Shown here one piece after another: positions 25,446 through 43,895 of a DNA stretch of 43,895 bases; positions within the stretch are counted from its first letter, which is position 1, and every line of letters starts with the position of its first letter. The position numbers were made by a program, and so were the translations under genes. The notes below the pieces were generated by a model. It saw only the letters and a program-made list of their open reading frames with translations, searched no databases and had not been told where the DNA came from. The stretch lies in sequence record SRR2962707_648; one strand, written 5' to 3'.

Positions 25446-25497
25446 TCTTAAGGGAGTACAACAGATCACGCCTTTAGCTAAAGGCACGCTATTGTGT

Positions 25498-26691
25498 TTA
25501 AAACTCGCCGCCCTGTTCCTTACCAAGACGCGACGAAATACGATATTCCCTTGGGGTCATACCGACATTTTTACGCATCACTGTGTACATATACTGAACC
25601 GATGGATAGCCGCAAGTACGGGCTATTTCATCAAAGGCAAGATTGGTGGACGTAACTAATTCACAGGCTCGATAAAATTTCGTCATGTGCAATTGCTCGT
25701 GCATTGAGCAACCGATTTCTTCAACAAATCGCGTTTCTAAGTTGGTACGAGATAAGCCCACATAATCAACGACTTGGGCAACCTTCACCCCTCGACACGC
25801 ATTATGGCGAATAAAGTGCATCGCCTGAATAACATAGGGGTCATTTAATGCTCGGTAATCAGAAGACTGCCTAGCCTCAACACCCACAGGGTCGACAACA
25901 ACCAAAGCGTCTTCCACGGAATAGCCAAGTAACATTCGATGCAGCATTTTAGCGGCGGCGTATCCCATCTCTTTACTGCCCTGTTCCACCGAGGAAAGCG
26001 CCGTTCGATTCAAATAACGAGCCATGCTTTCGTTATCAATGCCGATAATCGCAATTTCTTCTGGCACCATAATATTAAGATGATCACAGGCCTGTAATAG
26101 ATGCCTTGCCCGTGAATCCGTTACCGCAACAATACCGATGGGTTTAGGCAAACTATTTAACCAGGTTTCTAAATCATGTTGCGCGGTTTGCCACGACGCT
26201 GCACTGGTCGGTAAGCCAAGATTCACATAAGGATGATAACCATCGGAACGGACTTGCTCGACAAAGGCGCTTTCTCTTTCGCCAGCCCAACGGCTATAGC
26301 GGGTACTTGGCACCCCATAAAAAGCAAATTCTGTCAGGCCTTTTTGTTTGAGATGATCATAGGCAAGTTTGACTAAGGCGGCGTTATCGGTGGCGACATA
26401 AGGCAGTCTTGGATAATCCGTTTTGTGTGCATAAGAGCCACCAACAGCCACGGTCGGAATCGTCGAGTCTTTCAGAATCGCTTCCACATCTGGGTTATCA
26501 AAGTCGGCAATGATACCGTCACCTTCCCAGTGAGTAAGCCCTTCTACTCGGGAGCGAAAATCGTCCTCCAAATAGACATCCCAATCACATTGTGCCGCTT
26601 GTAAATATTCACCAATGCCTTCAACCACTTGACGGTCATAGACTTTATTGGCGTTGAAGACGAGATTAAGCCGATAACGTTTTTCAAACAT
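25498..26691 (-). CDS. xylR: Xylose operon activator (PBP-fold sensor plus AraC HTH)
   Basis: FNANKVYDRQVVEGIGEYLQ, DGIIADFD, VGGSY, ATDN and CGYPSVQY motifs; start at 26691 or 26697. Confidence 0.96.
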   Translation of the reverse strand: MFEKRYRLNLVFNANKVYDRQVVEGIGEYLQAAQCDWDVYLEDDFRSRVEGLTHWEGDGIIADFDNPDVEAILKDSTIPTVAVGGSYAHKTDYPRLPYVATDNAALVKLAYDHLKQKGLTEFAFYGVPSTRYSRWAGERESAFVEQVRSDGYHPYVNLGLPTSAASWQTAQHDLETWLNSLPKPIGIVAVTDSRARHLLQACDHLNIMVPEEIAIIGIDNESMARYLNRTALSSVEQGSKEMGYAAAKMLHRMLLGYSVEDALVVVDPVGVEARQSSDYRALNDPYVIQAMHFIRHNACRGVKVAQVVDYVGLSRTNLETRFVEEIGCSMHEQLHMTKFYRACELVTSTNLAFDEIARTCGYPSVQYMYTVMRKNVGMTPREYRISSRLGKEQGGEF

Positions 26692-26849
26692 ACACATTCA
26701 TCTCTTATTATTATAGGTATCAGTGATAGATATTTATCATACACTGGTATTTTATTGAGATAATGCCAGATCGAAAAAAAAGAAAAATCACGGTGAAAAT
26801 TCATAATCAGCAGCCGCAAAGTCAGCACCAATAACAGGGTGTCTCACTC

Positions 26850-28325
26850 TCAAGAAAACGACGATAACCCCTTCACGCCTTGATACAAGGACTGATATTG
26901 TTGACGTTTTTGCTGATAGTACTCTCGATCGTTCATTATCGGTTCAAATCGAGCGATCCTATTAGGTTTACAGCAAATCCCCTGTAATGCGCCCTGCCCA
27001 TGTATCGCAAGTGCAGCAAGGCGCGCAGCGCCCAATGCCGGCCCCACGTCTCCGCCTTCTCGATAATCCATAGGAACCCCCAAAATAGTCGCAAGCAACT
27101 GCAACCAATAATGACTGCGCGCACCGCCACCAATCACATCGATACTCGCCTCTATTTGCTGCACGGATTGCACCGCATCAAGCCCATCCTGCAAGGCGAA
27201 CGAAACGCCTTCTAACACGGCTTCTAGCAAATCAATCGCTTGTGTTTCATGAGACAAACCATAAAACACCCCTTTGGCATTAGGGTCATTATGGGGCGTT
27301 CTTTCGCCGCTTAGATAAGGCAAAAAAACCACCCCTGGATTCGATGACAATTTTCGCTGTATCGGCCGATTCTCCAGCGCTTGGAAAGCCGCTTTTACGC
27401 TACCAAATTGCGTTAATTGCACCACCCAATCGACACAACTGGCAGCACTTAAAATCACCGACATGGTATGCCAAGTATTGGGCAAGGCGTGACCAAAGCT
27501 GTGTAAGGCAACGTCTGGATTGGCAGTAAAACCATCGCTCACCGAAAAAATCACCCCTGATGTTCCCAGCGATAACATGGTTTGTCCTTTATGTATCACG
27601 CCCATACCCACTGCGCCCGCCGCATTGTCACCTCCCCCAGCGACAACCGGCACACAAGGCAAAGACCAGCGCTGTGCAACCTCAAGGCTGAGCGTGCCGG
27701 TTATCTCGCAGCCCTCATAAACCTTTGGCATCTGTGCCATGGTTAGCCCTGTTGCGTGCAACATGCGCTCGCTCCAGACTCGCTCTTCCATGTCGAGCCA
27801 TAAGGTGCCTGACGCATCTGAGACATCCGTGGCAAATTCATTCGTCATGCGTAATCTGAGAAAATCCTTGGGTAATAATACTTTCGCTATGCGCCGAAAG
27901 ACCTCAGGCTCATGCTCCCGTAGCCACACTAATTTGGGGGCCGTAAAACCAGGCATTACCAAGTTTCCCGTAATCGCTTGCACTTCAGGGCACTGCCTCT
28001 GTAATTGCTGGCAAGCGTCAAAAGAGCGCCCGTCATTCCATAAAATAGCCGGCCTTAATACACGATTTTTCGCATCCAATAAGGTCGCTCCGTGCATTTG
28101 CCCAGACAAACCTATCGCCTTAACCCTGCCTAAATCGTGCGCCAGAGCAAGCGCTAACATAGCCTTATCAGTGGCTTGCCACCAATGTTCTGGGTCTTGT
28201 TCAGACCACAATGGATGCGGTCTTGAAACACTCAAAGGCGATGTTTGACTGGCGATCACTTGCCCTTCTTCGGACATTAAAATAACTTTTACACCAGATG
28301 TGCCCAGATCGATTCCTAAATACAT
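26850..28325 (-). CDS. xylB: Xylulokinase
   Basis: MYLGIDLGTSGVK, SGQMHG, ILWNDGR, PGFTAPKL, GGGDNAAGA and FLPYLSGERTPHND motifs. Confidence 0.97.
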   Translation of the reverse strand: MYLGIDLGTSGVKVILMSEEGQVIASQTSPLSVSRPHPLWSEQDPEHWWQATDKAMLALALAHDLGRVKAIGLSGQMHGATLLDAKNRVLRPAILWNDGRSFDACQQLQRQCPEVQAITGNLVMPGFTAPKLVWLREHEPEVFRRIAKVLLPKDFLRLRMTNEFATDVSDASGTLWLDMEERVWSERMLHATGLTMAQMPKVYEGCEITGTLSLEVAQRWSLPCVPVVAGGGDNAAGAVGMGVIHKGQTMLSLGTSGVIFSVSDGFTANPDVALHSFGHALPNTWHTMSVILSAASCVDWVVQLTQFGSVKAAFQALENRPIQRKLSSNPGVVFLPYLSGERTPHNDPNAKGVFYGLSHETQAIDLLEAVLEGVSFALQDGLDAVQSVQQIEASIDVIGGGARSHYWLQLLATILGVPMDYREGGDVGPALGAARLAALAIHGQGALQGICCKPNRIARFEPIMNDREYYQQKRQQYQSLYQGVKGLSSFS

Positions 28326-28395
28326 ACGATTTCCTTCTGATGAAGCACGAATTGACGCCACAATTCACCGACAAATGGCTCGGTAAAGGCGCGCA

Positions 28396-29526
28396 TTACT
28401 GAGCTTTTTTGGTTTTTACATCCAACCAAACCGCCAACAGCAAGATGCCTCCTTTGACGATCAACTGCCAAAACGTCGGCACATCCAACATGCTCATACC
28501 ATTGTCTAGGCTCGACATAATCAAGGCCCCCATGATGGCACCAAAAACAGTACCGACACCGCCCGCTAAGCTAGTCCCACCGATAACACACGCGGCAATC
28601 GCGTCCAGCTCAGCCATATTACCGGCGGCAGGCGACCCAGCGCCCAAGCGAGAAGTTAAAATTAACGCGGCGACGGCCACCATCACGCCATTGAACCCAA
28701 ACACAAACATCTTGTTTTTTTCCACGTTGACGCCAGACATCCTAGTGGCTTCGATGTTGCCACCAATGGCGTACACACGGCGCCCAAAGGCGGTTCTTTT
28801 GGCCACATAAGTCGCTACCAAAATCAGCGCTCCCATGATCAAAATTGGGGTCGGAATGCCTCGATAGCCTTCCAGTATCGCCAATAAAATCAACAGCACA
28901 GCCACCGATATAACAGCATTTAAGTATTCAAATTTGGCCGAACTGTTACTCACACCATGCTTATGTTGTGCTTGGCGACGGCGATACACCTTAGCAATCA
29001 CCCCCAGACACAAGAGCAACACCAAACTCACGCCCCAACCGGTTGGAACATAACTCTGACCAATGACACCTAATGCACCAGAGGTAGGCGCCACCGTAGC
29101 GCCATCGGTCAATCCCACCAAAATGCCACGAAACGCCAGCATCCCCGCCAAGGTCACGATAAAAGAAGGGACTTTTTGATACGCCACCCACCAGCCATTA
29201 AACAGCCCTAACAATAAGCCTGCTCCCATGGTGATCAAGACGGTCAACATAATAGGAAAGTGAAGCCAAACATCTAGAATCGCCGCAATGCCACCAAGCA
29301 AGCCCATCATAGAACCAACAGAAAGGTCGATTTCTGCACTGATTATGACAAACACCATGCCGATCGCTAGCACCCCTACAATGGCGGTTTGACGAAATAA
29401 GTTGGACACATTACGAGGTGAAATAAACGCGCCATCGGTGGCAAAAGAAAAGAACACCACGATCAAAAACATCGCAGCCAACATGGCTAACAGCTGCAAT
29501 TGATTGGTTTTTATTGTTTTTAACAT
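28396..29526 (-). CDS. xylH: D-xylose ABC permease
   Basis: [44 protein letters not shown] and SLDNGMSM motifs. Confidence 0.95.
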
Positions 29527-29539
29527 TTTCGATATTTCC

Positions 29540-31066
29540 TTAAGCAAGTGCGGTGTCGTTAATGGCGCAGTTCATGATTTTTTCTTGCGTTAGCCCCTGA
29601 TAGCCAAATTCTCCTTTTAATTGGCCTTCATGCATCACCAATACTCGATCACTAATACCAATCACTTCTGGTAATTCGGAGGACACCATAATGATGGAAA
29701 CGCCTTCTTTCACGAGGGCAAACATCAACTTATAAATTTCGTATTTGGCGCCCACATCAATGCCTCGGGTCGGTTCATCCAAGATCAATATTTTGGGATT
29801 GGTTGAGAGAAAACGCGCAATAATGGCCTTTTGTTGATTACCACCACTGAGGTTTTTAATGGCCAGCTCTGAGGTGGCGGTTTTGACTTTAAGACGGGCT
29901 ATCGAGTCATGGACATCATGGGATTCTTTGTCTTCATCAATCGCCCCCCAAAGGGAGGTATAACGATCCAGAATCGACAAGGTAATATTGCGCCCCACGC
30001 CCATAATGGGCACTATGCCATGACGCTTTCGGTCTTCTGGCACCATGGCGATCCCGGCCTTTAATGCCGCCCGCTGGGAGCGTATCTGCAATGGCTTTCC
30101 TGCTAGCTCAAGCGTGGCCCGATATTGCCCCGCGTAACAACCATATATGCACTGCATAAGCTCAGTTCGACCGGAACCAATAAGACCAGCAATGCCTAGA
30201 ATTTCCCCTTTGCGAAGGGCAAAACTCACATCATCCACTTGCGGGCGAGACGCCCCTGCTTGAATGGCGTGTGCGTGATTGACTTGTAAAATTACCTCAC
30301 CAATCTGGTGGAATTCTCTAGGAAAAAGCTCGTCCAATTGACGCCCGACCATCATGCTAATGATGTCATTTTGAGTCAGCGTTGCCGCGGCTTTGGTGGC
30401 GATATGGTTACCATCTCGAATCACCGCGACCCAATCTGATAACGCCAGCACCTCGTCCAATTTGTGCGAGATATACACGCAGGCAATGCCCTGCTCTTTC
30501 AACCCATTGACAATGCCCAGTAAAATATCAATTTCATTATTGGTCAAAGACGAAGTCGGCTCATCAAGAATCAAAAGCTTCACATTTTTGTTCAGCGCTT
30601 TCGCAATCTCGACCAGTTGCTGCTGCCCCACACCCAACTCTCGAACCAAGGTATCGGGAGAAATATTAAGCTTTACTTGCGCTAATAACTCACGGGATCG
30701 ACTGTGCATCATGGCGTCATTTAAGCCCGCAAAAGAACCTAATTCGTTGCCTAAGAAAATATTCTCCATGACAGACAGTTCTTTCACGAGCGCCAATTCT
30801 TGATGAATAATGACAATGCCTAAGGTTTCTGTGTCTCGAATTCCGCTCGCCTTAACTTGCTGACCTTGAAAGTAAATCTCACCGTCATAGGACCCATAAG
30901 GCCATACGCCACTTAGCACCTTCATCAAGGTCGATTTACCTGAACCATTCTCACCGCACAGTGACAACACCTCGCCGTCACCCAAGGTAATACTGACTCC
31001 GTTTAACGCACGCACACCGGAAAAACTTTTCACGATATTGCGCATATCCAATAAGGGTTGTTTCAT
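29540..31066 (-). CDS. xylG: D-xylose ABC ATP-binding protein
   Basis: Double ABC domain: [42 protein letters not shown]. Start at ATG 31066 behind GAGG. Confidence 0.95.
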
Positions 31067-31121
31067 ACCGCCACCTCTATGAAAAGCAAAAGCGCTCTTG
31101 CGAGCGCCTACCGTGAATAAT

Positions 31122-32117
31122 TTAAGGGTTGTATATCTCTTTATGGGTATGGAAGCCATCCGCAATAATGGTGCTATCAATGTTGTCTTTAGACACAGCA
31201 ATCGGTGTTAGCAATACCGCAGGGACTTCTTTTTTGGCGTTGTTTACCGTGCTGTTCGTGCTGATTTTTTCACCGCGCGCCAACTTCACCGCCAGTTCGG
31301 CACTGGTGGTGGCCAATTTAGAAATGGGTTTGTACACCGTCATCGTTTGGCTGCCTGCGACAATGCGTCGAATCGCCGCCAAATCAGCGTCCTGCCCAGA
31401 AATAGCCACTTTACCCGCCAAGCCTTGAGCATTCAGCGCTTGAATTGCACCACCTGCGGTCGAGTCATTGGACGCCACCACGGCATCAATTTTATTCTGG
31501 TTTGCCGTCAGTCCATTTTCCATAATGTTCAGTGCGGCTTCGGCTGACCAGCCGGTGGCCCATTGGTCGCCCACGACCTTGATATCACCGCGTTCAATGG
31601 CTGGATTCAAAACATTCATCTGCCCTTCACGGAACATTTTGGCGTTATTGTCCGTTGGTGCTCCGCCTAGTAAAAAGTAGTTACCTTTTGGCACTCGCTT
31701 CATCAAGGCTTCGGCCTGCATTTCTCCGACTCGCACATTGTCGAATGACACATACAAGTCAATGTCTGCAAATTTAATCAAGCGGTCATAGGCCAGTACT
31801 TTAATGCCTTCTGCTTTTGCTTCTGACAGCACATTGCCCAGCACTTCACCGTTTTCTGCGACGATAACCAACACATCCACACCACGGGAAATCATGTTTT
31901 CGATTTGAGAAATCTGCGTGCTCGCATCCCCATTAGCGGATTGGGTATACACTTTTGCCCCCAAGGCTTGGGCCGCATGAGTAAAGAGGTCACTGTCTTT
32001 TTGCCAGCGTTCAAGACGTAAGTCAGACATCAACAAGCCAATTTTTTCACCGGCTGCCATCACTGGGCTAGCGGAGCAGATGACCGCCAATAGCCCAAGG
32101 GAAATGAGTTTCTTCAT
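31122..32117 (-). CDS. xylF: D-xylose ABC periplasmic binding protein
   Basis: DLRLERWQKD, QISQIENMISRGVDVL, AYDRLI, PTDNNAK, SGQDAD and TVYKPI motifs. Confidence 0.96.
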   Translation of the reverse strand: MKKLISLGLLAVICSASPVMAAGEKIGLLMSDLRLERWQKDSDLFTHAAQALGAKVYTQSANGDASTQISQIENMISRGVDVLVIVAENGEVLGNVLSEAKAEGIKVLAYDRLIKFADIDLYVSFDNVRVGEMQAEALMKRVPKGNYFLLGGAPTDNNAKMFREGQMNVLNPAIERGDIKVVGDQWATGWSAEAALNIMENGLTANQNKIDAVVASNDSTAGGAIQALNAQGLAGKVAISGQDADLAAIRRIVAGSQTMTVYKPISKLATTSAELAVKLARGEKISTNSTVNNAKKEVPAVLLTPIAVSKDNIDSTIIADGFHTHKEIYNP

Positions 32118-32466: not shown

Positions 32467-33840
32467 TTAAAAAATTAAGAAGCCCAAGGAAATAATCACA
32501 CCAGAACCCAGTAATGCCATGATGCAATAACCCATTACGTCTTTCGCACCCAGACCGGCAATCGCTAACGCTGGTAATGCCCAGAAAGGCTGAATCATGT
32601 TTGTCCAAGCATCCCCCCAAGCAATCGCCATGGCGGTTTTCGCGGCATCCACTCCTAAAGCTGCACCGGCAGGCATCATCACAGGCGCTTGAACCGCCCA
32701 CTGACCGCCACCAGAAGGTACAAAGAAATTCACAATACCCGCGCTTAAGAAGGTAAAGAGAGGAAAGGTGGTTTCATTGGAAATCGACACAAACCATTGA
32801 GAAATGACGCCCGCCAATGACGCTCCGCCATCGCCGGTTGCTGTCATCATCCCCATAATGCCCGCATAGAAAGGGAACTGAAGCAGAATCCCAGAACAGT
32901 TACGCGCGCCTTGAGAAACCGAATTCAACAAGCTTTTTGGGGTTCCGTGAAGCAAGATCGCGGTGAACAAAAAGGTAAAGTTAACGATGTTTAAATTCAG
33001 CGCAAAGCCTTTAGTAACAAAGTAATAAATGATGTAAGCAAAGCCCATAGCGCCCAATAACAATGACAGTGTACGGCTGTTTTCCATCCGCTCTGCTGGT
33101 GTCATCTTGCCGGTTTTAGGCGCTTCAACTTTTTCTTCTTCAAGCAAGGACGCATCGATCGTGATGGTGTCTTGAGGCGCAGGGTGCATGAGTCGATTCA
33201 ACAAAGGAATCGCCACGAGCATCACCGCCAAAATGGTTAAGTTCATGGGTGAGAAAATCGTTTCTGAGGTAGGAATCGCCGACGTCACGGCGCCATTGGT
33301 CACCGTACTGATGTTGGCGCCACCCGCAATTGCCAACGGAATTGAGCCGGACAAGCCCGCATGCCAAAACAAGAAACCACTGTACGCAGAAGCGATCAAC
33401 AAACGGTAATCTACGCCTTTCACTTTTGCCGCTAATTCGCGGGCAAAAATCGCCCCAACAACCAAACCAAAGCCCCAGTTAACCCAACAAGCAAGGGCAC
33501 TGATTACCGTAACAAGAAGAATCGCTTGGCCCGGCGTTTTGGCCACGCCTGCCAACATTGCCAATTTGCGTTTAAACGCTGGTGCACTGGCCATCGCATG
33601 ACCGGTAACCACCACCATGGCCATCTGCATGGAGAAACTCAACAGTTTCCAAAAGCCCCCTGCCCATGCATTAACCACTTCCATCGGCCCTTGGTTAGTG
33701 CTTGGCATAACCAAGACAAACACCACCAGAGTAAGCACAATGGCGAAGATAAATGGGTCCGGTAGGTAACGTTGAAGAAGCGTAACGAAAAATTTACTCA
33801 AGCGCTGCAAAGCAGTCTGTTTTACTGCGTTATTAGTCAT
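32467..33840 (-). CDS. atoE: Short-chain fatty acid/acetoacetate transporter
   Basis: RYLPDPFIFA, FSMQMA, NWGFGLV, HAGLSGSIPL, QFPFYAGIMG, FVPSGGGQWAVQ and WGDAWTNMIQPFWALP motifs. Confidence 0.95.
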   Translation of the reverse strand: MTNNAVKQTALQRLSKFFVTLLQRYLPDPFIFAIVLTLVVFVLVMPSTNQGPMEVVNAWAGGFWKLLSFSMQMAMVVVTGHAMASAPAFKRKLAMLAGVAKTPGQAILLVTVISALACWVNWGFGLVVGAIFARELAAKVKGVDYRLLIASAYSGFLFWHAGLSGSIPLAIAGGANISTVTNGAVTSAIPTSETIFSPMNLTILAVMLVAIPLLNRLMHPAPQDTITIDASLLEEEKVEAPKTGKMTPAERMENSRTLSLLLGAMGFAYIIYYFVTKGFALNLNIVNFTFLFTAILLHGTPKSLLNSVSQGARNCSGILLQFPFYAGIMGMMTATGDGGASLAGVISQWFVSISNETTFPLFTFLSAGIVNFFVPSGGGQWAVQAPVMMPAGAALGVDAAKTAMAIAWGDAWTNMIQPFWALPALAIAGLGAKDVMGYCIMALLGSGVIISLGFLIF

Positions 33841-33952
33841 TGGGTTTCCCTAATATTATAGTTATTTTAGGTGAAAGCCAGAACGCTTGATAAGCGACCT
33901 GGCTTGGTTTTATATGGTTATATTTTTTATTTTCTGGCCTTCCTGACCCTTT

Positions 33953-35128
33953 CTAACGTGACACCAACATGGCAATCCCCATGCCTCCGCCAATGCAAAG
34001 CGTTGCCAATCCTTTATGGCGCTCTTGACGTTTCATTTCATGCAATAAGGTAATCAATATTCGACAGCCAGACGCCCCAATGGGATGACCCAAAGCAACG
34101 GCACCGCCATTTACATTGACCTTACTGGCATCCAAAGCAAGCTCTTGATTGACACACAATGCCTGTACGGCAAAGGCTTCATTGGCCTCAATCAAATCCA
34201 AATCTGCGATTGACCAATCGGCCTTCTCTAACACTTTTTTCGTCGCTGCAATCGGCCCTGTGCCCATGATTTCAGGAGCAACCCCGGCGCTGCTGACCGC
34301 TTCAATCACCGCCAATACTGGCAAGCCTAAACGTGCCGCTTCTTCATCTGAGGTCACTATCACCATGGCTGCACCATCGTTCAACGTGGAAGCATTGCCG
34401 GCTGTCACTGACCCTCCGCGGCTAAAGGCAGGTCGTAACTTAGCCAAGGCTTCTTCAGTTGCATTGGATCGAATTTGCTCATCCTGAGCAAAAATAACCG
34501 GCTCACCTTTGCGCTGTGGGATCACCACAGGAATAATCTCTTCCACAAAATGACCTGCCGCCTGCGCTCGAGCGGCTTTTTGTTGTGACTGTACGGCAAA
34601 GGCATCTTGCTCTTCACGGCTAATGTTCCATCGTGAGGCGATGTTTTCTGCGGTTTGTCCCATGTGATAATCGTTAAAGGCATCCCATAGGCCATCCGTC
34701 ACCATGGTATCCAGCATTTCCCAATTGCCCATTTTCTTACCAGAGCGGCTATTCGGCAGTACATGGGCCGCTTGGCTCATGCTTTCTTGACCACCGGCCA
34801 CCACCATTTTTGCGTCACCGTTTAATACCGCCTGTGCTGCGAGCTGAACCGCTTTTAAGCCAGAGCCACAGACTTTATTAATGGTCATAGCGGAAACTTG
34901 TTTGGTAAGACCGGCATGTATTGCCGTTTGACGGGCTGGGTTTTGACCACAGCCTGCGGCCAACACCTGGCCTAAAATCACTTCATCAATGTGTTCTTTC
35001 AGAACAGGTTCTTTGGCTAATAATCCACTGAGTAATTGAGTACCTATCTCAACGGCGCTTAAGGAAGACAAGGCACCATTAAAGGCACCAATCGGGGTTC
35101 TTCCAGCGGCAACAATGACTGCTTTCAT
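33953..35128 (-). CDS. atoB: Acetyl-CoA C-acetyltransferase (thiolase II)
   Basis: GQNPARQ, NKVCGSG, EANEAFA, GHPIGASG and TLCIGGGMG motifs; start at ATG 35128. Confidence 0.95.
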   Translation of the reverse strand: MKAVIVAAGRTPIGAFNGALSSLSAVEIGTQLLSGLLAKEPVLKEHIDEVILGQVLAAGCGQNPARQTAIHAGLTKQVSAMTINKVCGSGLKAVQLAAQAVLNGDAKMVVAGGQESMSQAAHVLPNSRSGKKMGNWEMLDTMVTDGLWDAFNDYHMGQTAENIASRWNISREEQDAFAVQSQQKAARAQAAGHFVEEIIPVVIPQRKGEPVIFAQDEQIRSNATEEALAKLRPAFSRGGSVTAGNASTLNDGAAMVIVTSDEEAARLGLPVLAVIEAVSSAGVAPEIMGTGPIAATKKVLEKADWSIADLDLIEANEAFAVQALCVNQELALDASKVNVNGGAVALGHPIGASGCRILITLLHEMKRQERHKGLATLCIGGGMGIAMLVSR

Positions 35129-35157
35129 GATTCTATTCTCCATTAACATAAGTCGGA

Positions 35158-35817
35158 TTAAGCAAACACCATTTCTGGTACATGATCAGGAACGATCAAT
35201 TTACCCTGTGTTTTTTCTTGGATTTCCTCTATAGAAACACCCGGTGCGCGTTCTTTCAAAATAAAAGCACCGTCTTCGATTTCCAACCAAGCCAAATCCG
35301 TTAAGACCTTCTTAATACACCCTTTTCCCGTTAATGGTAAGGCACACTCGCTCAATAATTTTGACTCACCTGATTTAGAGGCGTGCGTCATGGTGACGAT
35401 AATATTGTCAGCACCGGCGACCAAATCCATTGCGCCCCCCATGCCTTTAATCAATTTATTAGGAATCATCCAAGAGGCAATGTTGCCATTCACATCCACT
35501 TCAAACGCCCCCAAGACGGTAAGATCCACATGACCACCACGGATCATCGCGAACGACTCAGCAGACGAAAAGATAGACGCGCCTTTCACCGCGGTTACCG
35601 TTTGTTTGCCCGCATTGATCATGTCCGCATCAATCGTCTCTTCGCTCGGAAACTCGCCCATACCGAGCAAGCCATTTTCCGATTGCAGCATCACCTCCAT
35701 GCCTTCTGGAATAAAGTTCGCCACCAAGGTCGGAATACCAATGCCTAGGTTCACGTAAAAACCATCTTGTAACTCTCTAGCAACACGCTGTGCCATTTGT
35801 TCTCTAGTAAGTGCCAT
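35158..35817 (-). CDS. scoB: 3-oxoacid CoA-transferase subunit B (ScoB/AtoA/DhcB)
   Basis: VNLGIGIPT, catalytic QSENG, MIRGGH and KGMGGAMDL motifs. Confidence 0.94.
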   Translation of the reverse strand: MALTREQMAQRVARELQDGFYVNLGIGIPTLVANFIPEGMEVMLQSENGLLGMGEFPSEETIDADMINAGKQTVTAVKGASIFSSAESFAMIRGGHVDLTVLGAFEVDVNGNIASWMIPNKLIKGMGGAMDLVAGADNIIVTMTHASKSGESKLLSECALPLTGKGCIKKVLTDLAWLEIEDGAFILKERAPGVSIEEIQEKTQGKLIVPDHVPEMVFA

Positions 35818-35869
35818 CTTTGCGCCTCTTATTATTCGTCTATTTTATTCGTCAATATGACAGGGCATT

Positions 35870-36574
35870 TTAGTCTGCTGATCGGACAGTGCGTTTCTCG
35901 ATACGCTTTTCAAACGAACCTTGAATAATGCGATCAACGTAAATACCAGGCGTGTGAATTTGAGCGGGATCCAGTTCACCGACGTCGACGATCTCTTCCA
36001 CTTCAACCACTGTGATTTTTCCAGCCGTTGCCGCGAGAGGATTAAAGTTTTGCGCAGTATGGCGATAAATAACATTGCCGTAACGGTCTGCTTTCCAGCC
36101 TTTTACAATGGCAAAATCACCGGTAATGGCTTCTTCCATTAGGTATTCACGACCATTAAAGACTCGCGTCTCTTTGCCTTCACCAACAGGGGTACCAACA
36201 CCTGTCGCGGTAAAAAAGGCAGGAATACCCGCGCCGCCAGCGCGCATTTTTTCGGCAAGGGTGCCTTGAGGTGTGAGCTCGACTTCTAACTCACCTTGGA
36301 GGAGTTGCTTTTCAAAAAGGGCATTTTCACCCACATAAGAAGAAATCATTTTGCGAACTTGCTTATCTTCCAGCAAAACGCCTAAACCAAAACCATCCAC
36401 ACCACAGTTATTAGACACTATGGTGAGGTCACGGGTTTGTCGTCGTTTGATTTCTTGAATAAGATTTTCAGGAATACCACATAGACCGAAACCACCAGCC
36501 AGTACGGTCATGCCGTCTTCTAGCCCAGCCATGGCGTCTTCATAGGACGTGACTACTTTGTCAAAACCCGCCAT
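35870..36574 (-). CDS. scoA: 3-oxoacid CoA-transferase subunit A (ScoA/AtoD/DhcA)
   Basis: [31 protein letters not shown] and IHTPGIYV motifs. Confidence 0.94.
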
Positions 36575-37791: not shown

Positions 37792-39210
37792 ATGCCATTG
37801 AAAAAAACAGAAAAGCTCACACAAGCGGCGAACACCTATAAGTCGATTTTAAACGCCATGGAAGAATGGGTTGTGATCGTCGATCATCAGTCCAAAATCT
37901 TCTTTATCAATCGGCCATACGCGCGTTTTTTAGGAGTGAAAGCCGAAGACGTCAAAGGCAAAAAAGTCACCGACGTCATTGAGAACACCCGCATGCACAT
38001 CACAGTGCAAACCGGGAAAGCAGAACGCTTGTCACTGCAAAAAATCCTTGGCAGTAACATGATCGCTAATCGCTTCCCTATTATCGAACAAGGAGAAGTC
38101 ATTGGTGCCATTGGCACTGTGATTTTTCATGATACGCACGAATGGAAACAGATTAACACCCACATAAAAGCGCTATTAGCAGAACAGGACTTTCGTCGCC
38201 AAAAGCAGCTAACGTCGGATAAAACTCTTTCTGGAGCCAGCTTTCATCTTAATGATGTCATTGGCGACAGCCAGATCATGAAGGCCTTAAGCGCTAAAGT
38301 GAAGCAAGTCTCTTCTGGCGATGTGACTGTGTTAATTCGTGGCGAATCCGGTACTGGCAAGGAACTCTACGCCCACGCGATTCATCAATTGTCAGACCGT
38401 GCAGAGTTTCCTTTTATCAAGGTGAATTGTGCCGCCATTCCTGAAAACTTATTGGAAAGCGAACTATTCGGTTACGAAGAAGGCGCCTTTACTGGAGCCA
38501 AACGAGGCGGTAAAGCCGGTAAATTTCAACTCGCGAACGGTGGCACATTATTTCTTGATGAAATAGGAGATTTACCCTTACCCATGCAAGCCAAACTGCT
38601 GCGTGTCTTGCAAGACAGAGAGGTCGAATCCGTGGGCGGCACCCACGCCACCCCACTCAACATTCGCTTAATTACCGCGACACATCGCCCTCTAGAAAGC
38701 TTGATCGCATCAGGGGATTTTCGTGAAGACCTTTATTATCGTATTAATGTCGTGTCTATTGCCCTTCCGCCGTTACGAGAACGTCGTGAGGACATTGCCA
38801 AACTGGCCGATTTTTTCCTCCAAAAACTGTCACGTAGAACCGGCAGACGCGCCCCCAAACTTACGGTTCAAGCGCTTACCGCCATGCTGGCTTATGATTG
38901 GCCGGGCAATATTCGTGAGCTAGAAAACGTTATGGAAGCCGCTTTTTACACCAGCCATGACAGAAAAATCCCCTTGTCACTGCTGCCTGTTCAGTTAGCA
39001 AAAACGCCTCCTGTTGCAACGCCCACCCCAGCGGACTTGAGCGCTCGCCAAGCGTCGGGGAGTTTAAAGGAGCAACTGAATACAGCGGAAAGAAACATTA
39101 TCAAGGCAGCGCTCATCGAATGTGGCGACAACCGCACCAAGGCGGCCAAAAAGCTGGGTATAAGTAAGTCCACTTTCTATGAAAAAATCGACAAATATGG
39201 AATCAGCTGA
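37792..39210 (+). CDS. PAS-domain sigma54 enhancer-binding protein (HbcR-like)
   Basis: N-terminal PAS; GESGTGKE, ESELFGYEEGAFTGA, FLDEIG, WPGNIRELEN; Fis-type HTH AAKKLGISKSTFY. No receiver domain. Confidence 0.95.
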   Translation: MPLKKTEKLTQAANTYKSILNAMEEWVVIVDHQSKIFFINRPYARFLGVKAEDVKGKKVTDVIENTRMHITVQTGKAERLSLQKILGSNMIANRFPIIEQGEVIGAIGTVIFHDTHEWKQINTHIKALLAEQDFRRQKQLTSDKTLSGASFHLNDVIGDSQIMKALSAKVKQVSSGDVTVLIRGESGTGKELYAHAIHQLSDRAEFPFIKVNCAAIPENLLESELFGYEEGAFTGAKRGGKAGKFQLANGGTLFLDEIGDLPLPMQAKLLRVLQDREVESVGGTHATPLNIRLITATHRPLESLIASGDFREDLYYRINVVSIALPPLRERREDIAKLADFFLQKLSRRTGRRAPKLTVQALTAMLAYDWPGNIRELENVMEAAFYTSHDRKIPLSLLPVQLAKTPPVATPTPADLSARQASGSLKEQLNTAERNIIKAALIECGDNRTKAAKKLGISKSTFYEKIDKYGIS

Positions 39211-39250
39211 ACAACTTCTTTACGAAAAATCAACAAATACACCAAAAACC

Positions 39251-39338
39251 GTCCGAAAAATCGGTCTAACTCCGAATATTCGGACTGTTTTTTATAAAAA
39301 ATATCATTAATGTATCAAAATCGTCCGATTTTCCGGAA
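39251..39338. promoter_or_regulatory. Three GTCCG-N6-CGGAC-type upstream activator sequences
   Basis: GTCCGAAAAATCGGTC (39251-39266), CTCCGAATATTCGGAC (39270-39285) and GTCCGATTTTCCGGAA (39323-39338), all within an otherwise very AT-rich spacer. Confidence 0.75.
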
Positions 39339-39411
39339 AAAATATAGAATATTTCTTTCATGGAAAAACCAAAACCAAATAAACCATTGAAAAATAAAGA
39401 AAATAAAATTG

Positions 39412-39427
39412 TGGCATTCTTTTTGAA
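39412..39427 (+). promoter_or_regulatory. Sigma54 -24/-12 promoter for dctPQM-bdhA
   Basis: TGGCATTCTTTTTGAA versus the consensus TGGCACG-N4-TTGCW: correct GG-N10 spacing, with GA instead of GC at -12. Confidence 0.7.
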
Positions 39428-39529
39428 AGCAAATAAAAAGCACAAAAGACGCTTCAGTTTATTCCACTAGAGCGTTTGCAAAACCTGCAGAACAAAAAAA
39501 TAGACAATAAGAATAATAGGATAACACTC

Positions 39530-40588
39530 ATGAAAAAAGCTCTGATAACAGCCACCTGTCTGACTGGATTAACATTCGCCGCCTCCTCCCATGCCGACTT
39601 CAATAAAATTCGTTGGCAAGTTCCTATGGCATTTTCCTCTTCTCTGATTGCACTTGGCGACACCATGCCTGAAGTGTCAAAAATGCTAAAAGAAAGCAGT
39701 GGCGGTAAAGTCAATCTGCAAGTATTCGAACCCGGTACCTTGATTCCAGCCCTGAGTATTTTTGACAATGTTAGCTCTGGCAACTTGTCTGCAGGCTACT
39801 CTTGGATGGGGTATGAGTGGGGACAAATTCCAGCAGCGGCTTTATTCGGAGCAACGCCATTCGGCCTTGAATCTAATGAGTTTACTGCTTGGATGTATTT
39901 CCATGGCGGCGATAAGATGCTGAAAAAGCTGTTTAAGCCTTATGATGTTTATCCTATTCTTTGCGGCACTATCAGCCCAGAAGCCGCAGGTTGGTTCCGT
40001 AAAGAAATCAAATCTGTCGACGATCTAAACGGTCTTAAATTCCGTGCTGCCGGTCTTGGCGGTGAAATCATGTCGGAATTTGGTATGTCGATCAACGTCT
40101 TCCCTGGCGGCGAGCTATATCAAGCATTGGAAACGGGCGTCTTAGACGGCACGGAATTCTCTATCCCTACGGTCGATGAACAACTTGGGTTCTATCAGGT
40201 AGCAAAACATTATTACCTTCCTGGTTGGCATCAGCCTTCCACAAACCAGTTCCTTTACATCAATACCAATGATTGGGAAAAACTGAACAAACAAACTCAG
40301 TCTTTAATTGAAACCAGCTGTATGGCCGCCAATACTCTCGCCATTTCAAAATCCGAAGCCTTACAAGGCGGCGTGCTAGCGAAATTCGAAGAAAAAGGCG
40401 TCAATTTACACCAGTACTCTCCTGAAATTCTGAAAGCCTTTGAAGTGGCAACCGACAAAGTCATGGCAAAACACTCTCAAGAAGACCCTCAATTTGCCGA
40501 GATCTACGCGTCCATGAAAGCCTTCCAGAAAGAGCATCGTCCATGGAAAAAATTGGGCTACTTACCTCGTGATTGGGACACTAAATAA
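39530..40588 (+). CDS. dctP: TRAP substrate-binding protein (DctP, TakP/monocarboxylate-like subfamily)
   Basis: Signal peptide; AAGWFRKEIKSVDDLNGLKFRAAG (carboxylate-binding Arg), GGELYQALETGVLDGTEF and YYLPGWHQP motifs. Start at ATG 39530. Confidence 0.92.
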   Translation: MKKALITATCLTGLTFAASSHADFNKIRWQVPMAFSSSLIALGDTMPEVSKMLKESSGGKVNLQVFEPGTLIPALSIFDNVSSGNLSAGYSWMGYEWGQIPAAALFGATPFGLESNEFTAWMYFHGGDKMLKKLFKPYDVYPILCGTISPEAAGWFRKEIKSVDDLNGLKFRAAGLGGEIMSEFGMSINVFPGGELYQALETGVLDGTEFSIPTVDEQLGFYQVAKHYYLPGWHQPSTNQFLYINTNDWEKLNKQTQSLIETSCMAANTLAISKSEALQGGVLAKFEEKGVNLHQYSPEILKAFEVATDKVMAKHSQEDPQFAEIYASMKAFQKEHRPWKKLGYLPRDWDTK

Positions 40589-40613
40589 CTCTATTTGACA
40601 CTCTGTTTAGTGA

Positions 40614-40648
40614 GTCGGCATGTGGTTTCAACCCATGCCGACGTTTTT
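40614..40648 (+). terminator. Intra-operonic stem-loop after dctP
   Basis: GTCGGCATG-N11-CATGCCGAC followed by GTTTTT; typical of elements that raise binding-protein mRNA relative to permease mRNA. Confidence 0.55.
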
Positions 40649-40685
40649 CACTGGGTGCACGCATCCGGAATCAAAGGAGAATGGT

Positions 40686-41288
40686 ATGTCTGATCATACT
40701 AACGAGCTGGATTTGGCGAAAATTGAGGCCAGCTTATCAAACTCAAATCTAAACCAGCTACCACACACAAAATTATCCAAATGCATTGAGTCTGCTATTG
40801 AAAAAGTTGGCCAATATTCCTCCTGGTTGTGGCTGATATTAATGCTGCTGATCGTCGGCAACGCTTTAATGCGATATTGCTTTAACACCACATTTGTCGC
40901 CTTAGAAGAGCTGCAATGGCATTTGTACGCGGTAGGCTTCATGCTTGGCCTATCCTATTGTTTTATTCATGATGGCCACGTTCGTGTGGATGCACTGGCT
41001 GAACACTGGTCACTGCGCAAACGGGCTTGGATCGAAATATTCGGTCTCACCTTTTTACTGCTTCCTTTTTGCATTGTGATGTTCAGTTACGCGTTGCCTT
41101 TTGTCGAACGCGCGTACCGAATGAACGAGGTTTCCCCATCTTTCGACGGGCTTCCTATGCGCTGGGTTATTAAATCTTTCATCCTAATCGCCTTAGCTTT
41201 ACTGATGGTCGCCGCTACTTCCCGCTGGCTTCGCTGTGTCTCTTTTTTAACCAATACGCCTAGCAACGATAACCACGCATCGCGCTAA
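40686..41288 (+). CDS. dctQ: TRAP small permease
   Basis: 4 TM; EELQWHLY and DGHVRVD motifs; AAGGAG before ATG 40686. Confidence 0.92.
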   Translation: MSDHTNELDLAKIEASLSNSNLNQLPHTKLSKCIESAIEKVGQYSSWLWLILMLLIVGNALMRYCFNTTFVALEELQWHLYAVGFMLGLSYCFIHDGHVRVDALAEHWSLRKRAWIEIFGLTFLLLPFCIVMFSYALPFVERAYRMNEVSPSFDGLPMRWVIKSFILIALALLMVAATSRWLRCVSFLTNTPSNDNHASR

Positions 41289-41305
41289 TCATTAGGGGAT
41301 TTACT

Positions 41306-42667
41306 GTGTTCGAAACATACGAGTTTTTAGTCATTGCCATGCTTGGCAGCTTTATTTTACTGATTTTCTCAGGCTTTCCCGTCGCTTGGGTATTGGCAGG
41401 TCTTGCCATCGTATTTAGTGTGGTGGGAGTTTTGTCATCTCAGTATCTAGACTGGGACACTTACTACATGACCGATTGGCGAATTTACGGCACCATAATA
41501 CAAAGAATCTACGCGCAAATGAGCAACTGGGTGTTGGTCGCCCTGCCCATGTTTATTTTTATGGGCCTGATGCTAGAACGCTCTGGCGTCGCTGAACGCT
41601 TAATGGTCAACTTCGTTAACTTATTTGGTCGCTTTCGCGGTGGACTTGGCGTTGCGGTTATTCTAATAGGCATCTTATTTGCTGCCTCTACCGGCATTGT
41701 CGGCGCTTCCGTGGTACTGCTTGCGATGTTGTCTATGCCCGTCATGCTTGAGCAAAAGTACTCCCCTTCTTTTGCCAGCGGCATTGTCGCATCATCAGGC
41801 ACTTTGGGTATTTTGATTCCACCAAGCATCATGCTGATCATCATGGCAGACCAGCTCTCTTTGTCGGTTGGTAACCTCTTTATGGGGGCGTTAATGCCTG
41901 GCCTTTTATTAGGCTCTTTGTACATTATCTATGTGATTTTGACGGCGATTTTTAACCCTAAAGTGTGCCATCCGCCGTTGGATTTACCGCCTATTAGCAA
42001 AGAACTGATCTGGTCAACTGTCAAAGCGGTATTTCCGCCCCTAGCGCTGATTTTATCCGTCTTAGGCTCTATCTTTATGGGCATTGTCTCTCCTACGGAA
42101 GCTGCAGGTGTCGGGGCATTTGGCGCGACGCTATTGGCAATTCTAAATAAACGCTTCAACCTCAGTATGTTGGCCGAAGTATGCCGTAAAACCACCATTA
42201 CGACGTCTTTTGTCTTTGGTATTTTCTTAGGCGCCACCGCCTTTGCCGTGGTATTAAGAACATTAGGCGGCGATGAGTTTATTAGCAGTCTTTTGCAAGG
42301 CATTCCTCTGTCACCATCTGGCATCATCATTGTTATTCTGTTGATTGCTTTCGTGGCGGGCTTCTTTTTAGATTGGCTCGAAATCAGTCTAATTCTGTTG
42401 CCATTGGTTGGGCCGGTTGTGGTCGCTCTTGACTTCAATTTGGTGTGGTTTGTGGTGCTTTTTGCCTTGGCGTTGCAAACGTCCTTTTTGACACCGCCCG
42501 TCGGTTTTTCGCTTTTCTATTTAAAAGGTGTCGCCCCTCCAGGTGTCACCACCATGCACATCTACAAAGGCGTTATCCCATTCATTTTATTGCAATTATT
42601 GGCCGTGCTTCTGGTGTTTTTCTTCCCAGATCTGGTGCTTTGGTTGCCTAAAGTCATCTACGGCTAA
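41306..42667 (+). CDS. dctM: TRAP large permease
   Basis: ALPMFIFMG, AASTGIVGAS, GTLGILIPPS, SPTEAAGVG and QTSFLTPPVGFSLFYLKGVAP motifs; GTG start. Confidence 0.94.
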   Translation: MFETYEFLVIAMLGSFILLIFSGFPVAWVLAGLAIVFSVVGVLSSQYLDWDTYYMTDWRIYGTIIQRIYAQMSNWVLVALPMFIFMGLMLERSGVAERLMVNFVNLFGRFRGGLGVAVILIGILFAASTGIVGASVVLLAMLSMPVMLEQKYSPSFASGIVASSGTLGILIPPSIMLIIMADQLSLSVGNLFMGALMPGLLLGSLYIIYVILTAIFNPKVCHPPLDLPPISKELIWSTVKAVFPPLALILSVLGSIFMGIVSPTEAAGVGAFGATLLAILNKRFNLSMLAEVCRKTTITTSFVFGIFLGATAFAVVLRTLGGDEFISSLLQGIPLSPSGIIIVILLIAFVAGFFLDWLEISLILLPLVGPVVVALDFNLVWFVVLFALALQTSFLTPPVGFSLFYLKGVAPPGVTTMHIYKGVIPFILLQLLAVLLVFFFPDLVLWLPKVIYG

Positions 42668-42726
42668 CGTTAACGACCGCCTTGTTCGAAGGGCGCTTGC
42701 TTAGCGCCCTTGTTTGGAGAATAACA

Positions 42727-43500
42727 ATGAATAATAAAACCGTTCTAATTACTGGTGCAGCAAGCGGTATAGGGCTAGAAATTGCTCAGGCTTTTCTAAC
42801 CGCTGGCATGCAAGTAGCGATCTTAGACTTTAGCAAAGAAGCCATCGAAGCGGCGCAAGCGCGCGTCTCTGAATTCAACAAGCAATGTGCTTTTTTTGTC
42901 TGCGATGTCACCAATGAGACACAGTTTTTGAGCGCCATTGACGAGGCCATAATGCAATTCGGCCACATCGATATTTTGATCAATAACGCCGGCGTACAGT
43001 ACATAGCTCCGATTGAAGAGTTTCCTTCGGACACGTACCGAAAACTCATCGACATCATGCTGATTGCGCCATTTATAGCAATCAAAAAGATACTTCCACT
43101 GATGAAGGAAAAAGGGGATGGCCGCATCATCAATATGGCCTCCATCAATGGTTTAATCGGCTTTGCTGGCAAGGCTGGTTACAACTCGGCAAAACACGGT
43201 GTGATAGGCTTAACTAAGGTATCCGCTCTGGAAGCCGCCCCCTTTGGCGTCACCGTTAATGCACTTTGTCCTGGTTATGTGGACACCCCATTGGTTAGAA
43301 ACCAACTGGAGGAGCTGGCAAGAACGAGAAATGTGCCACTCGATGACGTTCTTGAAGAAGTGATATGGCCATTAGTGCCACAGAAACGCCTACTCAGCGT
43401 GAAAGAAATTTCCGACTACTGTTTATTTCTCACCAGTCCATCCGCTAAAGGCGTAACCGGACAAGCCATTGTCATCGATGGTGGGTATACCGCTCAGTAG
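42727..43500 (+). CDS. bdhA: D-3-hydroxybutyrate dehydrogenase (SDR)
   Basis: TGAASGIG, NNAGVQYIAPIEEFP, ASINGL, KAGYNSAKHGVIGLTK, CPGYVDTPLVRNQ and DGGYTAQ motifs, including the HBDH substrate-pocket Gln/Lys/Gln residues. Context is a ketone-body cluster. Confidence 0.9.
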   Translation: MNNKTVLITGAASGIGLEIAQAFLTAGMQVAILDFSKEAIEAAQARVSEFNKQCAFFVCDVTNETQFLSAIDEAIMQFGHIDILINNAGVQYIAPIEEFPSDTYRKLIDIMLIAPFIAIKKILPLMKEKGDGRIINMASINGLIGFAGKAGYNSAKHGVIGLTKVSALEAAPFGVTVNALCPGYVDTPLVRNQLEELARTRNVPLDDVLEEVIWPLVPQKRLLSVKEISDYCLFLTSPSAKGVTGQAIVIDGGYTAQ

Positions 43501-43531: not shown

Positions 43532-43564
43532 AAAGGCCTTAATAGAATATTAAGGCCTTTTTTT
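43532..43564. terminator. Intrinsic terminator after bdhA
   Basis: AAAGGCCTTAATA-GAA-TATTAAGGCCTTT followed by TTTT. Confidence 0.9.
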
Positions 43565-43657
43565 AGCGACAATTACGGCACGCCTAACTCACCATATACG
43601 ATCAATCGAGCTTGAAGCGACCCGATTGAACGTAGCAAGTAAGTTTCAATCAGCGCG

Positions 43658-43895
43658 TTATATCTTAAATTTAGCTAATGCTTTTGCCTGCTCAATAGTG
43701 ATCTCTACCATGTCATCAGACAAGGTAGATTGGTTTTTAGCGGCATCAGAAACAGACTGACTAATGTCACGAATATTACTGGTATTGCGGTTAATTTCAT
43801 TGGAAGTAGCGCTTTGCTCTTCCGCTGCGGCCGCAATTTGTACCGTCATGTCATTAATATCGTTAATCCTTGCGCGGATTTCAGCCAACGACTGT
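43658..43895 (-). CDS. Methyl-accepting chemotaxis protein, C-terminal end (5' part outside the window)
   Basis: INDMTVQIAAAAEEQSATSNEINRN...AKFKI methylation helix. Confidence 0.9.
   Translation of the reverse strand, partial: QSLAEIRARINDINDMTVQIAAAAEEQSATSNEINRNTSNIRDISQSVSDAAKNQSTLSDDMVEITIEQAKALAKFKI

Follow-up and report, generated by a model that had tools for sequence, protein, structure and literature searches.

A candidate sigma54-dependent TRAP importer of 3-hydroxybutyrate encoded with bdhA in Marinomonas

Introduction

Which substrate is imported by a tripartite ATP-independent periplasmic (TRAP) transporter whose genes lie between that of a sigma54 activator and that of a 3-hydroxybutyrate dehydrogenase? 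The question was raised by a stretch of 43,895 nucleotides from sequence record SRR2962707_648 (hereafter, the window), which carries at 37792-43500 an activator gene followed by dctPQM, encoding the transporter, and bdhA, encoding the dehydrogenase. Recent work has put 3-hydroxybutyrate forward as an underrated currency in the flux of marine carbon, and only one bacterial uptake system for it has been called confirmed. A preliminary description of the window, made from its letters alone, had placed the TRAP system in the slot held by a single-component transporter in Pseudomonas and had named (R)-3-hydroxybutyrate as its candidate substrate. Our sequence comparisons indicated that dctPQM-bdhA is probably a sigma54-dependent catabolic operon that imports 3-hydroxybutyrate and feeds it to BdhA, with acetoacetate perhaps as a co-substrate or an alternative.

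Gene content of the operon

The list of open reading frames (ORFs) and the Pfam and NCBIfam scans bore out every gene named in the preliminary description at its place, both the activator followed by dctP-dctQ-dctM-bdhA and the neighbouring scoAB-atoB-atoE genes with a LysR regulator. The features of the operon were the following:

37792-39210 (+): PAS-sigma54 enhancer-binding activator, 472 aa; PF00158 236 bits, with AAA_lid_14, HTH_8 and PAS/PAS_9
39252-39265, 39271-39284 and 39324-39337 (+): three palindromes TCCGA-N4-TCGGA, candidate activator binding sites (upstream activating sequences), judged by count versus expectation and a 12-locus alignment
39412-39426 (+): sigma54-type -24/-12 element TGGCAT-N5-TTGA, approximately 104 nt upstream of the dctP ATG
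39530-40588 (+): dctP, periplasmic binding protein of the E/Q subfamily of the TakP family, 352 aa; PF03480 152.5 bits
40614-40651 (+): stable hairpin (40614-40642) and U-run directly after dctP; gap -35.7 kcal/mol, z = -3.79, 0 of 200 shuffles as stable
40686-41288 (+): dctQ, small membrane subunit, 200 aa from ATG 40686; PF04290 71.9 bits
41306-42667 (+): dctM, large membrane subunit, 453 aa; PF06808 257.8 bits, TIGR00786 318.8 bits (cut-off 268.45)
42689-42711 (+): 9-bp GC-rich hairpin between dctM and bdhA, lacking a proper U-tract; centroid -16.8 kcal/mol, z = -2.04, 6 of 200 shuffles as stable
42727-43500 (+): bdhA, (R)-3-hydroxybutyrate dehydrogenase, 257 aa from ATG 42727; NF009093 362.6 bits (cut-off 258), TIGR01963 339.8 bits (cut-off 307.05)
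43532-43567 (+): intrinsic terminator, a 13-bp stem (43532-43560) followed by U7; z = -5.13, 0 of 200 shuffles fold as well

Three gene starts were corrected by reading the sequence. That of dctP is ATG 39530, which gives a signal-peptide-like N-terminus; that of dctQ is ATG 40686, preceded by an AAGGAG ribosome-binding site and in keeping with orthologous ORFs of 198-203 aa; and that of bdhA is ATG 42727, with a GGAG ribosome-binding site. The genes for DctP, DctQ and DctM are contiguous on one strand, as in TRAP transporters of the DctPQM type (TC 2.A.56), and BdhA passed both curated cut-offs for 3-hydroxybutyrate dehydrogenase, whereas the activator reached no equivalog cut-off in the NCBIfam scan. 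In the nearest genome (G001), one of 21 short-chain dehydrogenase/reductase (SDR) matches lay above the BdhA cut-off, namely the operon BdhA. The operon belongs to a Marinomonas; its DctP was 100% identical to those of M. arenicola JCM 15737 (L004) and of G001.

Transporters beside bdhA

A search for BdhA in 251 genomes of the order, with 10 SDR candidates scored per genome, gave at least five matches at E ≤ 1e-75. Two of five belonged to Marinomonas with the window-type operon. Two more genomes, of genus g280 (L084:10068-14821 and L085:6487-10220), encoded an activator 66% identical to that of the window, then a TRAP system of another lineage (lineage B, the window system being lineage A), and then BdhA. 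The lineage-B transporter is non-orthologous to that of the window, with identities of 32% for DctP, 31% for DctQ and 46% for DctM, while the g280 bdhA product was 68-69% identical (367 bits, cut-off 258) and its gene was followed by those for acetoacetate-CoA ligase (aacS, 1001.9 bits) and a thiolase. Upstream of the lineage-B dctP, locus L084 carried two copies of the window palindrome with one mismatch each and a TGGCAC-N5-TTGA element. Genus g280 is a case of non-orthologous displacement of the transporter inside one regulon.

The fifth genome (L086) encoded a 473-aa GntP-like permease directly upstream of bdhA (PF02447, 25.1 bits, cut-off 22.5), which gave no NCBIfam match at 1e-40; scoAB and a LysR gene lay approximately 6 kb from this pair. 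Published accounts of Pseudomonas putida describe a sigma54 regulator (PP_3075), a 'D-beta-hydroxybutyrate permease' in the same operon (PP_3074) and a dehydrogenase (PP_3073), and report fitness defects for this unit on 1,3-butanediol, which is degraded via 3-hydroxybutyrate. A single slot is thus shared by three transporters: TRAP lineage A, as in the window, TRAP lineage B, and a GntP-like single-component permease. Because all three occupy it under one regulatory design, the window TRAP likely carries the substrate of BdhA, and we consider this the strongest argument for that reading. The proposal that a TRAP system has taken the transporter slot is well supported by the finding of all three beside bdhA and by the P. 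putida permease in print.

As a separate observation, a gene for a methyl-accepting chemotaxis protein (L084:15119-16978) adjoined the activator gene of L084, and genes for Cache-domain proteins of this kind (L091:7652-9295 and L097:11202-13271) adjoined TRAP systems of the E/Q type described below. Chemotaxis toward the same acid may be co-located with its uptake.

Conservation among DctP orthologues

Relatives of DctP with 60-97% identity were found in Marinomonas, Marinobacterium, Nitrincola, Saccharospirillum, Rhodocyclaceae/Azoarcus, Paracoccaceae, Salinarimonas and others, and one orthologue carries the SEED-style name 'unknown substrate 6'. The distribution of the lineage was patchy. 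Among 300 genomes spread evenly over the class, DctP had a match at E ≤ 1e-60 in 81 but exceeded 43% identity in G001 only. A search of the class with the activator at E ≤ 1e-110, in which five candidates were scored per genome, gave at least one of 300 genomes and says little about its distribution.

A scan of named-species genomes with an 18-sequence DctP alignment returned 337 relatives, of which the best 80, all at least 61% identical, were used. Their 10-kb flanks were searched with the window proteins, and the neighbouring ORFs were clustered and representatives annotated. The window-like order activator-dctPQM-bdhA (group a) was present in 15 of the 80 loci, namely 14 from Marinomonas plus L039, and also in G459, while one Marinomonas contig (L008) stopped before bdhA and was too short to judge. 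An activator 66-100% identical to that of the window stood beside dctP in 16 loci. Just seven, all of group a, had the operon adjoined by the acetoacetate module and LysR gene that precede it in the window:

32467-33840 (-): atoE-type short-chain fatty acid transporter; PF02667 589 bits
33953-35149 (-): thiolase (acetyl-CoA acetyltransferase); TIGR01930 474 bits
35158-35817 (-): scoB; TIGR02428 327.4 bits
35870-36574 (-): scoA; TIGR02429 251.8 bits
36735-37667 (+): LysR-family regulator, divergent from scoA; PF00126, PF03466

The genes scoA-scoB-thiolase-atoE form a context module at 32467-36574 (-) for acetoacetate activation, thiolysis and short-chain fatty acid transport. The record that contains locus L039 bears the title Rhodanobacter aciditrophus JCM 30774; the operon of this locus, like its palindromes and its DctP, nested in the Marinomonas clade, beside a Marinomonas metagenome-assembled genome (MAG) in the tree. 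Either the name of the record does not fit its DNA or the locus was transferred.

A second arrangement (group b) was seen in 18 loci from Marinobacterium and Nitrincola, with DctP 69-75% identical to that of the window and, immediately before dctP, a bdhA that belongs to another lineage. Its product was 36-40% identical to the window BdhA and reached 311 bits for TIGR01963 (cut-off 307.05) and 306 bits for NF009093 (cut-off 258). In 15 of these 18 loci, bdhA was preceded by a gene for acetoacetate-CoA ligase, the first of the operon (1001.6 bits, cut-off 639), and upstream lay a gene for a divergent sigma54 activator (35-41% identical, no PAS match) and a TGGCAA-N5-CTGC element. Since orthologous DctPs are linked to a second, independent bdhA lineage and to acetoacetate-CoA ligase, a C4 ketone-body substrate is supported.

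Binding site of DctP

The closest solved relatives of DctP were 7ug8, a 'ketoacid-binding protein' (1.4e-62), TakP (2hzk/2hzl, 4.4e-61), 4pet, 4yzz/4yic and 5cm6. The window protein aligned to 2hzk over residues 18-343, up to chain residue 348 of 365, and so shares the long C-terminal helix extension of the TakP subfamily, whose members are 2-oxo acid receptors that form helix-swapped dimers. As described for TakP, Arg177 and Tyr100 hold the bound pyruvate, and the ligands of the Na+ ion are Gln156, Glu214, the carbonyl of Trp215 and Glu240; the ligand tests described there covered 2-oxo acids only (Gonin et al., 2007). Mapping of these residues by the printed alignment, with an offset of +5, gave the following correspondence:

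TakP Tyr100: window Tyr95, kept
TakP Arg177: window Arg172, kept
TakP Glu214: window Glu209, kept
TakP Trp215 (backbone): window Phe210 (backbone), position kept
TakP Gln156: window Glu151 (codon 39980-39982), swapped
TakP Glu240: window Gln235 (codon 40232-40234), swapped

The window DctP therefore lacks the cation site of TakP as defined by these ligands; the swapped site may still bind a cation, though not in the TakP arrangement. All mapped residues, Glu151 and Gln235 included, were invariant in 18 orthologues, and Arg172, the partner of the substrate carboxylate in TRAP transporters, was also invariant in a six-sequence alignment that included lineage B and a paralogue. Lineage B shares Glu151 and His234-Gln235, whereas the genome's own TakP-like paralogue (L002, 30% identical) has Gln and His-Glu.

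The six solved relatives examined were all of the Gln...Glu (TakP) type, so the Glu...Gln (E/Q) type is without a solved structure. Among the 20 best matches of the class sample, all 13 at 36% identity or more had Glu...His-Gln and all seven weaker ones had Gln...Glu; in the family that holds the Yoonia locus, all 16 matches, at 37-43% identity, had Glu...His-Gln. The two types were split with 100% support in a quick maximum-likelihood tree of 105 rows with SH-aLRT (Shimodaira-Hasegawa-like approximate likelihood ratio test) support, whose careful search was unfinished and from which L001 (a duplicate of the window region), L003 (a distant paralogue) and L086 (no DctP) had been excluded. In the same tree, lineage A was a clade of 82 rows, again with 100% support, and linkage to bdhA appeared at four places: Marinomonas, Marinobacterium/Nitrincola, L091 and lineage B.

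Promoter and transcription

The 320 nt that separate the activator gene from dctP carry the predicted control region. Palindrome matches with at most one mismatch numbered four in the window, against 0.71 expected window-wide, and three of them fell inside the 86 nt at 39252-39337. Exact palindromes were confined to the site upstream of dctP and were present in 11 of 83 loci (Marinomonas and L039). When the spacers of 12 loci (11 Marinomonas and L039) were aligned, mean column identity was 56%, and the conserved islands were the three palindromes, TGGCA-N6-TTG and the ribosome-binding site with the ATG; the rest had diverged. TGGCA and TTG were invariant in all 12. The nearest genome, G001, encodes RpoN (497.9 bits, cut-off 277.35). 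The locus accordingly shows the marks of a sigma54 regulon: an enhancer-binding activator gene adjoining transporter genes and bdhA, a -24/-12 promoter, and rpoN in the nearest genome.

The preliminary description had counted one strong terminator. That at the end of the operon was real (z = -5.13), and further hairpins were found after dctP, with a U-run, and after dctM, the latter weaker. The hairpin after dctP is a possible attenuator or mRNA stabiliser and could underlie expression of the binding protein above that of the membrane subunits, a pattern which the Digital Microbe paper describes for ATP-binding cassette (ABC) and TRAP systems.

Contigs from RNA-labelled metatranscriptomes of two studies, at least 99% alike to the window, covered dctP best, and one (40279-40806) bridged dctP and dctQ. 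At the hairpin after dctP, a contig from one run's RNA library ended at 40609 and another (X2 record 9) read through. RNA-labelled libraries can contain DNA, and such contigs give neither transcript starts nor levels; the cover of dctP and the contig that bridges it to dctQ provide weak backing for the operon. The activator-dctP spacer, much of dctM and the dctM-bdhA junction were without contig cover, and for these parts the contigs say nothing on transcription or its absence. A transcript start based on contig ends was considered and dropped, as the ends near 39457 and 39486 in one study disagree with that at 39545 in the other. Co-transcription of bdhA with dctPQM we infer from the 59-nt dctM-bdhA gap and the conserved gene order only.

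Assignment of the substrate

Several results weigh against a bdhA-linked importer of 3-hydroxybutyrate. The largest set of loci (group c, 46 of the 80, from Saccharospirillum, Rhodocyclaceae and Alphaproteobacteria) carried neither a gene like bdhA nor genes for an activator or for CoA enzymes within the flank retrieved, several of these contigs being short; the neighbours encoded LysR, RimO, GlnE and an aminotransferase, and in seven loci a GMC oxidoreductase. If the substrate is 3-hydroxybutyrate, lineage-A genomes without an adjacent bdhA should encode BdhA elsewhere. Among 11 such genomes, seven had a BdhA above the cut-off and one just below it (289 bits, cut-off 307), and three, two Saccharospirillum isolates and an Azoarcus MAG, had none at E ≤ 1e-60. 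The two Saccharospirillum genomes (G550 and G555, loci L038 and L048) encode DctPQM with DctP 73-75% identical to that of the window, acetoacetate-CoA ligase (829 and 826 bits, cut-off 521) and ScoB (257 bits, cut-off 243.55); neither of the latter two enzymes was found in the Azoarcus MAG. At the promoter, the -12 element read TTGA or TTGT in all 12 aligned loci, against a consensus of TTGC. Owing to the hairpins after dctP and dctM, and since no RNA contig of the two studies bridged dctM and bdhA, a single transcript is no more than plausible.

The E/Q signature was also wider than the linkage to bdhA. Suggestive neighbours were present in four of the 13 E/Q loci of the class sample: L091, where an EBP2-like activator and a Cache chemoreceptor accompany a BdhA-like SDR with 52% identity to the second lineage; the loci L090 and L094, with EBP2-like activators and, in L094, a fused CoA-transferase after dctM; and L096, with an alpha/beta hydrolase and a thiolase. 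Several ORFs without a Pfam family in high-GC loci of this set, a product of naive ORF calling, were treated as spurious rather than as novel genes. In the family of the Yoonia locus, neighbours of the 3-hydroxybutyrate type were found in none of the 16 E/Q loci, bar one weak SDR. The signature alone was therefore rejected as a predictor of a bdhA neighbourhood, since it fails in most E/Q loci. Our search of the literature found no binding or transport data for any member of the E/Q subfamily.

The alternative that survives best is that the TRAP system primarily imports acetoacetate, while 3-hydroxybutyrate enters otherwise, for example through AtoE, or bdhA serves another purpose. Because the Saccharospirillum genomes keep acetoacetate enzymes without BdhA, acetoacetate is a real candidate substrate of lineage A, alone or together with 3-hydroxybutyrate. 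The position of acetoacetate-CoA ligase as the first operon gene in 15 loci and the fused CoA-transferase of L094 point the same way. For the window, however, 3-hydroxybutyrate is favoured, since the TRAP genes are joined to bdhA and not to scoAB, while the scoAB-thiolase operon has its own atoE, which suggests a division of labour. In addition, the permease that fills the corresponding slot of P. putida carries an annotation for D-beta-hydroxybutyrate, and a BdhA-family gene stood directly beside the TRAP genes in 33 of the 80 loci. We thus regard acetoacetate as an unlikely primary substrate of the window system. The earlier assignment of 3-hydroxybutyrate stands as far as linkage to two bdhA lineages carries it and is weakened by the 46 loci without a nearby bdhA, the three genomes without BdhA and the acetoacetate alternative. 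Likewise, the neighbourhood comparison suggested in the preliminary description showed co-occurrence with bdhA in the 33 loci and none in the flank of the 46.

Import of some other monocarboxylate, be it a 3-hydroxy acid with a longer chain or, as in TakP, an acid of the 2-oxo or 2-hydroxy kind, would make the linkage to bdhA that of a broader SDR or mere co-regulation. By name or description, every solved relative is a binder of 2-oxo acids or lactate, most E/Q-type systems have uninformative neighbours, and the name 'unknown substrate 6' was given to an orthologue. Against this, two cation ligands of TakP, where the ion is the partner of the 2-oxo group, are swapped; the genome also encodes a distinct paralogue of the TakP type, in which the residues are Q/E; and all informative neighbourhoods, with two bdhA lineages, acetoacetate-CoA ligase, thiolase and CoA-transferase, indicate C4 ketone bodies. 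Such a substrate seems to us improbable.

A broader and rather doubtful idea is that the TRAP receptors in the E/Q branch of the TakP family constitute a clade so far unrecognised, whose ligands are short monocarboxylates oxygenated at position 3, such as 3-hydroxybutyrate, acetoacetate and their relatives. It would then form a major high-affinity route for ketone-body-type dissolved carbon in marine and soda-lake bacteria, recruited at least four times beside bdhA. The swap of cation ligands would, on this idea, retune Na+-bridged recognition from 2-oxo to 3-oxy acids, and the clade would span Gamma-, Beta- and Alphaproteobacteria.

Proposed pathway and its implications

For import of 3-hydroxybutyrate by the dctPQM-bdhA operon, the following sequence of events is proposed. 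The PAS activator would sense the substrate or a close metabolite and bind the three TCCGA-N4-TCGGA sites, 75-160 nt upstream of the -24/-12 promoter, which would switch the operon on. Periplasmic DctP would capture (R)-3-hydroxybutyrate, and probably acetoacetate too, holding the carboxylate via Arg172 and Tyr95, with a putative cation site formed by Glu151, Glu209, the Phe210 backbone and Gln235. DctQM would move the acid inward, most likely together with Na+ as in other members of the family. Inside the cell, BdhA would oxidise 3-hydroxybutyrate to acetoacetate, which the adjoining ScoAB and thiolase would convert to two acetyl-CoA.

High affinity, Na+ coupling and an origin of the substrate from polyhydroxybutyrate, all put forward in the preliminary description, are inferences from knowledge of the family and may hold here. 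Models for class I polyhydroxyalkanoate synthase (TIGR01838) and for the Esterase_PHB domain, the two searched, gave no match in G001 or G459 (0 of 2 genomes each), which fits with use of an outside supply, although synthases of other classes may be present. As to such a supply, 3-hydroxybutyrate has been reported as a diatom endometabolite. During a bloom, it is also described as a substrate likely to be abundant (Schroer et al., 2023; PMC10130141).

The candidate in Marinomonas, Marinobacterium and Nitrincola would allow metatranscriptomes to be read for 3-hydroxybutyrate use in Gammaproteobacteria, and would name a TRAP family that one source labels 'unknown substrate 6'. The swapped cation ligands offer TRAP biochemistry a simple hypothesis of specificity, in a subfamily without a solved structure. 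Three transporters under one regulator design also make a clean case of non-orthologous displacement in a catabolic operon.

Other features of the window

Just past the operon terminator, an open frame on the minus strand (43680-43895) runs off the 3' end of the window. Farther upstream, a xylose-type cluster at 24041-32117 comprises genes for a sugar ABC binding protein (31122-32117), an ATPase, a permease, an FGGY kinase (26850-28361) and a XylR-like AraC regulator (25498-26697). It also contains a 439-aa ORF (24041-25360) that gave no Pfam match at 1e-8 and that may encode a xylose isomerase. A gene at 17995-21891 (-) encodes a 1298-aa hybrid histidine kinase with CHASE, several PAS, HisKA/HATPase, receiver and Hpt domains.

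Comparison with known systems

One of the closest known systems is HbtABC (SPO2571-2573) of Ruegeria pomeroyi DSS-3, a multi-gene 3-hydroxybutyrate uptake system of a marine bacterium, as proposed for the window, for which uptake was verified by growth, drawdown and pooled RB-TnSeq (randomly barcoded transposon sequencing; Schroer et al., 2023; PMC10130141). There, hbtABC is described as a novel annotation lacking an earlier prediction and as well conserved across Roseobacter genomes, and the 3-hydroxybutyrate transporter as the third most expressed in R. pomeroyi in the bloom; linkage to bdhA is not mentioned (PMC10130141). The transporter class is unstated in the main text and the preprint, and 'TRAP', 'tripartite', 'permease' and 'binding protein' each occur 0 times in the paper (PMC10130141).

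Ruegeria and classic roseobacter isolates were absent from the best 120 matches (at least 70% identical) of a Paracoccaceae or Yoonia query and from the best 80 named loci. In that family of bacteria, lineage A was found in four of 151 sampled genomes and any match at E ≤ 1e-70 in 33. This suggests that hbtABC is not orthologous to the window TRAP. That the window system is a plain orthologue of HbtABC, and nothing new, is highly unlikely: hbtABC is a three-gene system verified for 3-hydroxybutyrate, and three genes suit a TRAP transporter, though equally a tripartite tricarboxylate transporter (TTT) or an ABC one, but the lack of Ruegeria and classic roseobacter isolates among these best matches and the four of 151 genomes, set against the wide conservation of hbtABC in Roseobacter, both argue indirectly against it. 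The novelty claimed earlier for a 3-hydroxybutyrate TRAP holds in that no report of a characterised one was found in the literature compared, the ligand tables of Vetting et al. (2015), which lay outside that comparison, being a source that may bear on it; it is weakened by the verified uptake system hbtABC, whose class is unstated.

The likeness to the Pseudomonas unit lies in a sigma54 activator, a transporter gene and bdhA, then acetoacetate CoA-transferase and thiolase, whereas the transporter there is a single-component permease and that of the window a three-component TRAP system. In P. aeruginosa, we take the names of the corresponding genes to be dhcR, dhcAB, PA2004 and, for the sigma54 regulator, PA2005. 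TakP of Rhodobacter sphaeroides (RSP_ SmoM; PDB 2HZK/2HZL) belongs to the same family as the window DctP, with the Tyr and Arg that hold the carboxylate, Glu214 and the C-terminal extension conserved, and differs in the cation ligands, which are Gln156 and Glu240 in TakP versus Glu151 and Gln235 in the window protein. AtoE (PF02667), encoded at the same locus, may offer these C4 acids, or related ones, another way in; unlike the TRAP system, it is a single-component secondary carrier that works without a binding protein and is encoded in a separate operon, probably under LysR control. Overall, the window system does not represent a new kind of system but joins two known kinds, the TRAP family and the sigma54 3-hydroxybutyrate regulon.

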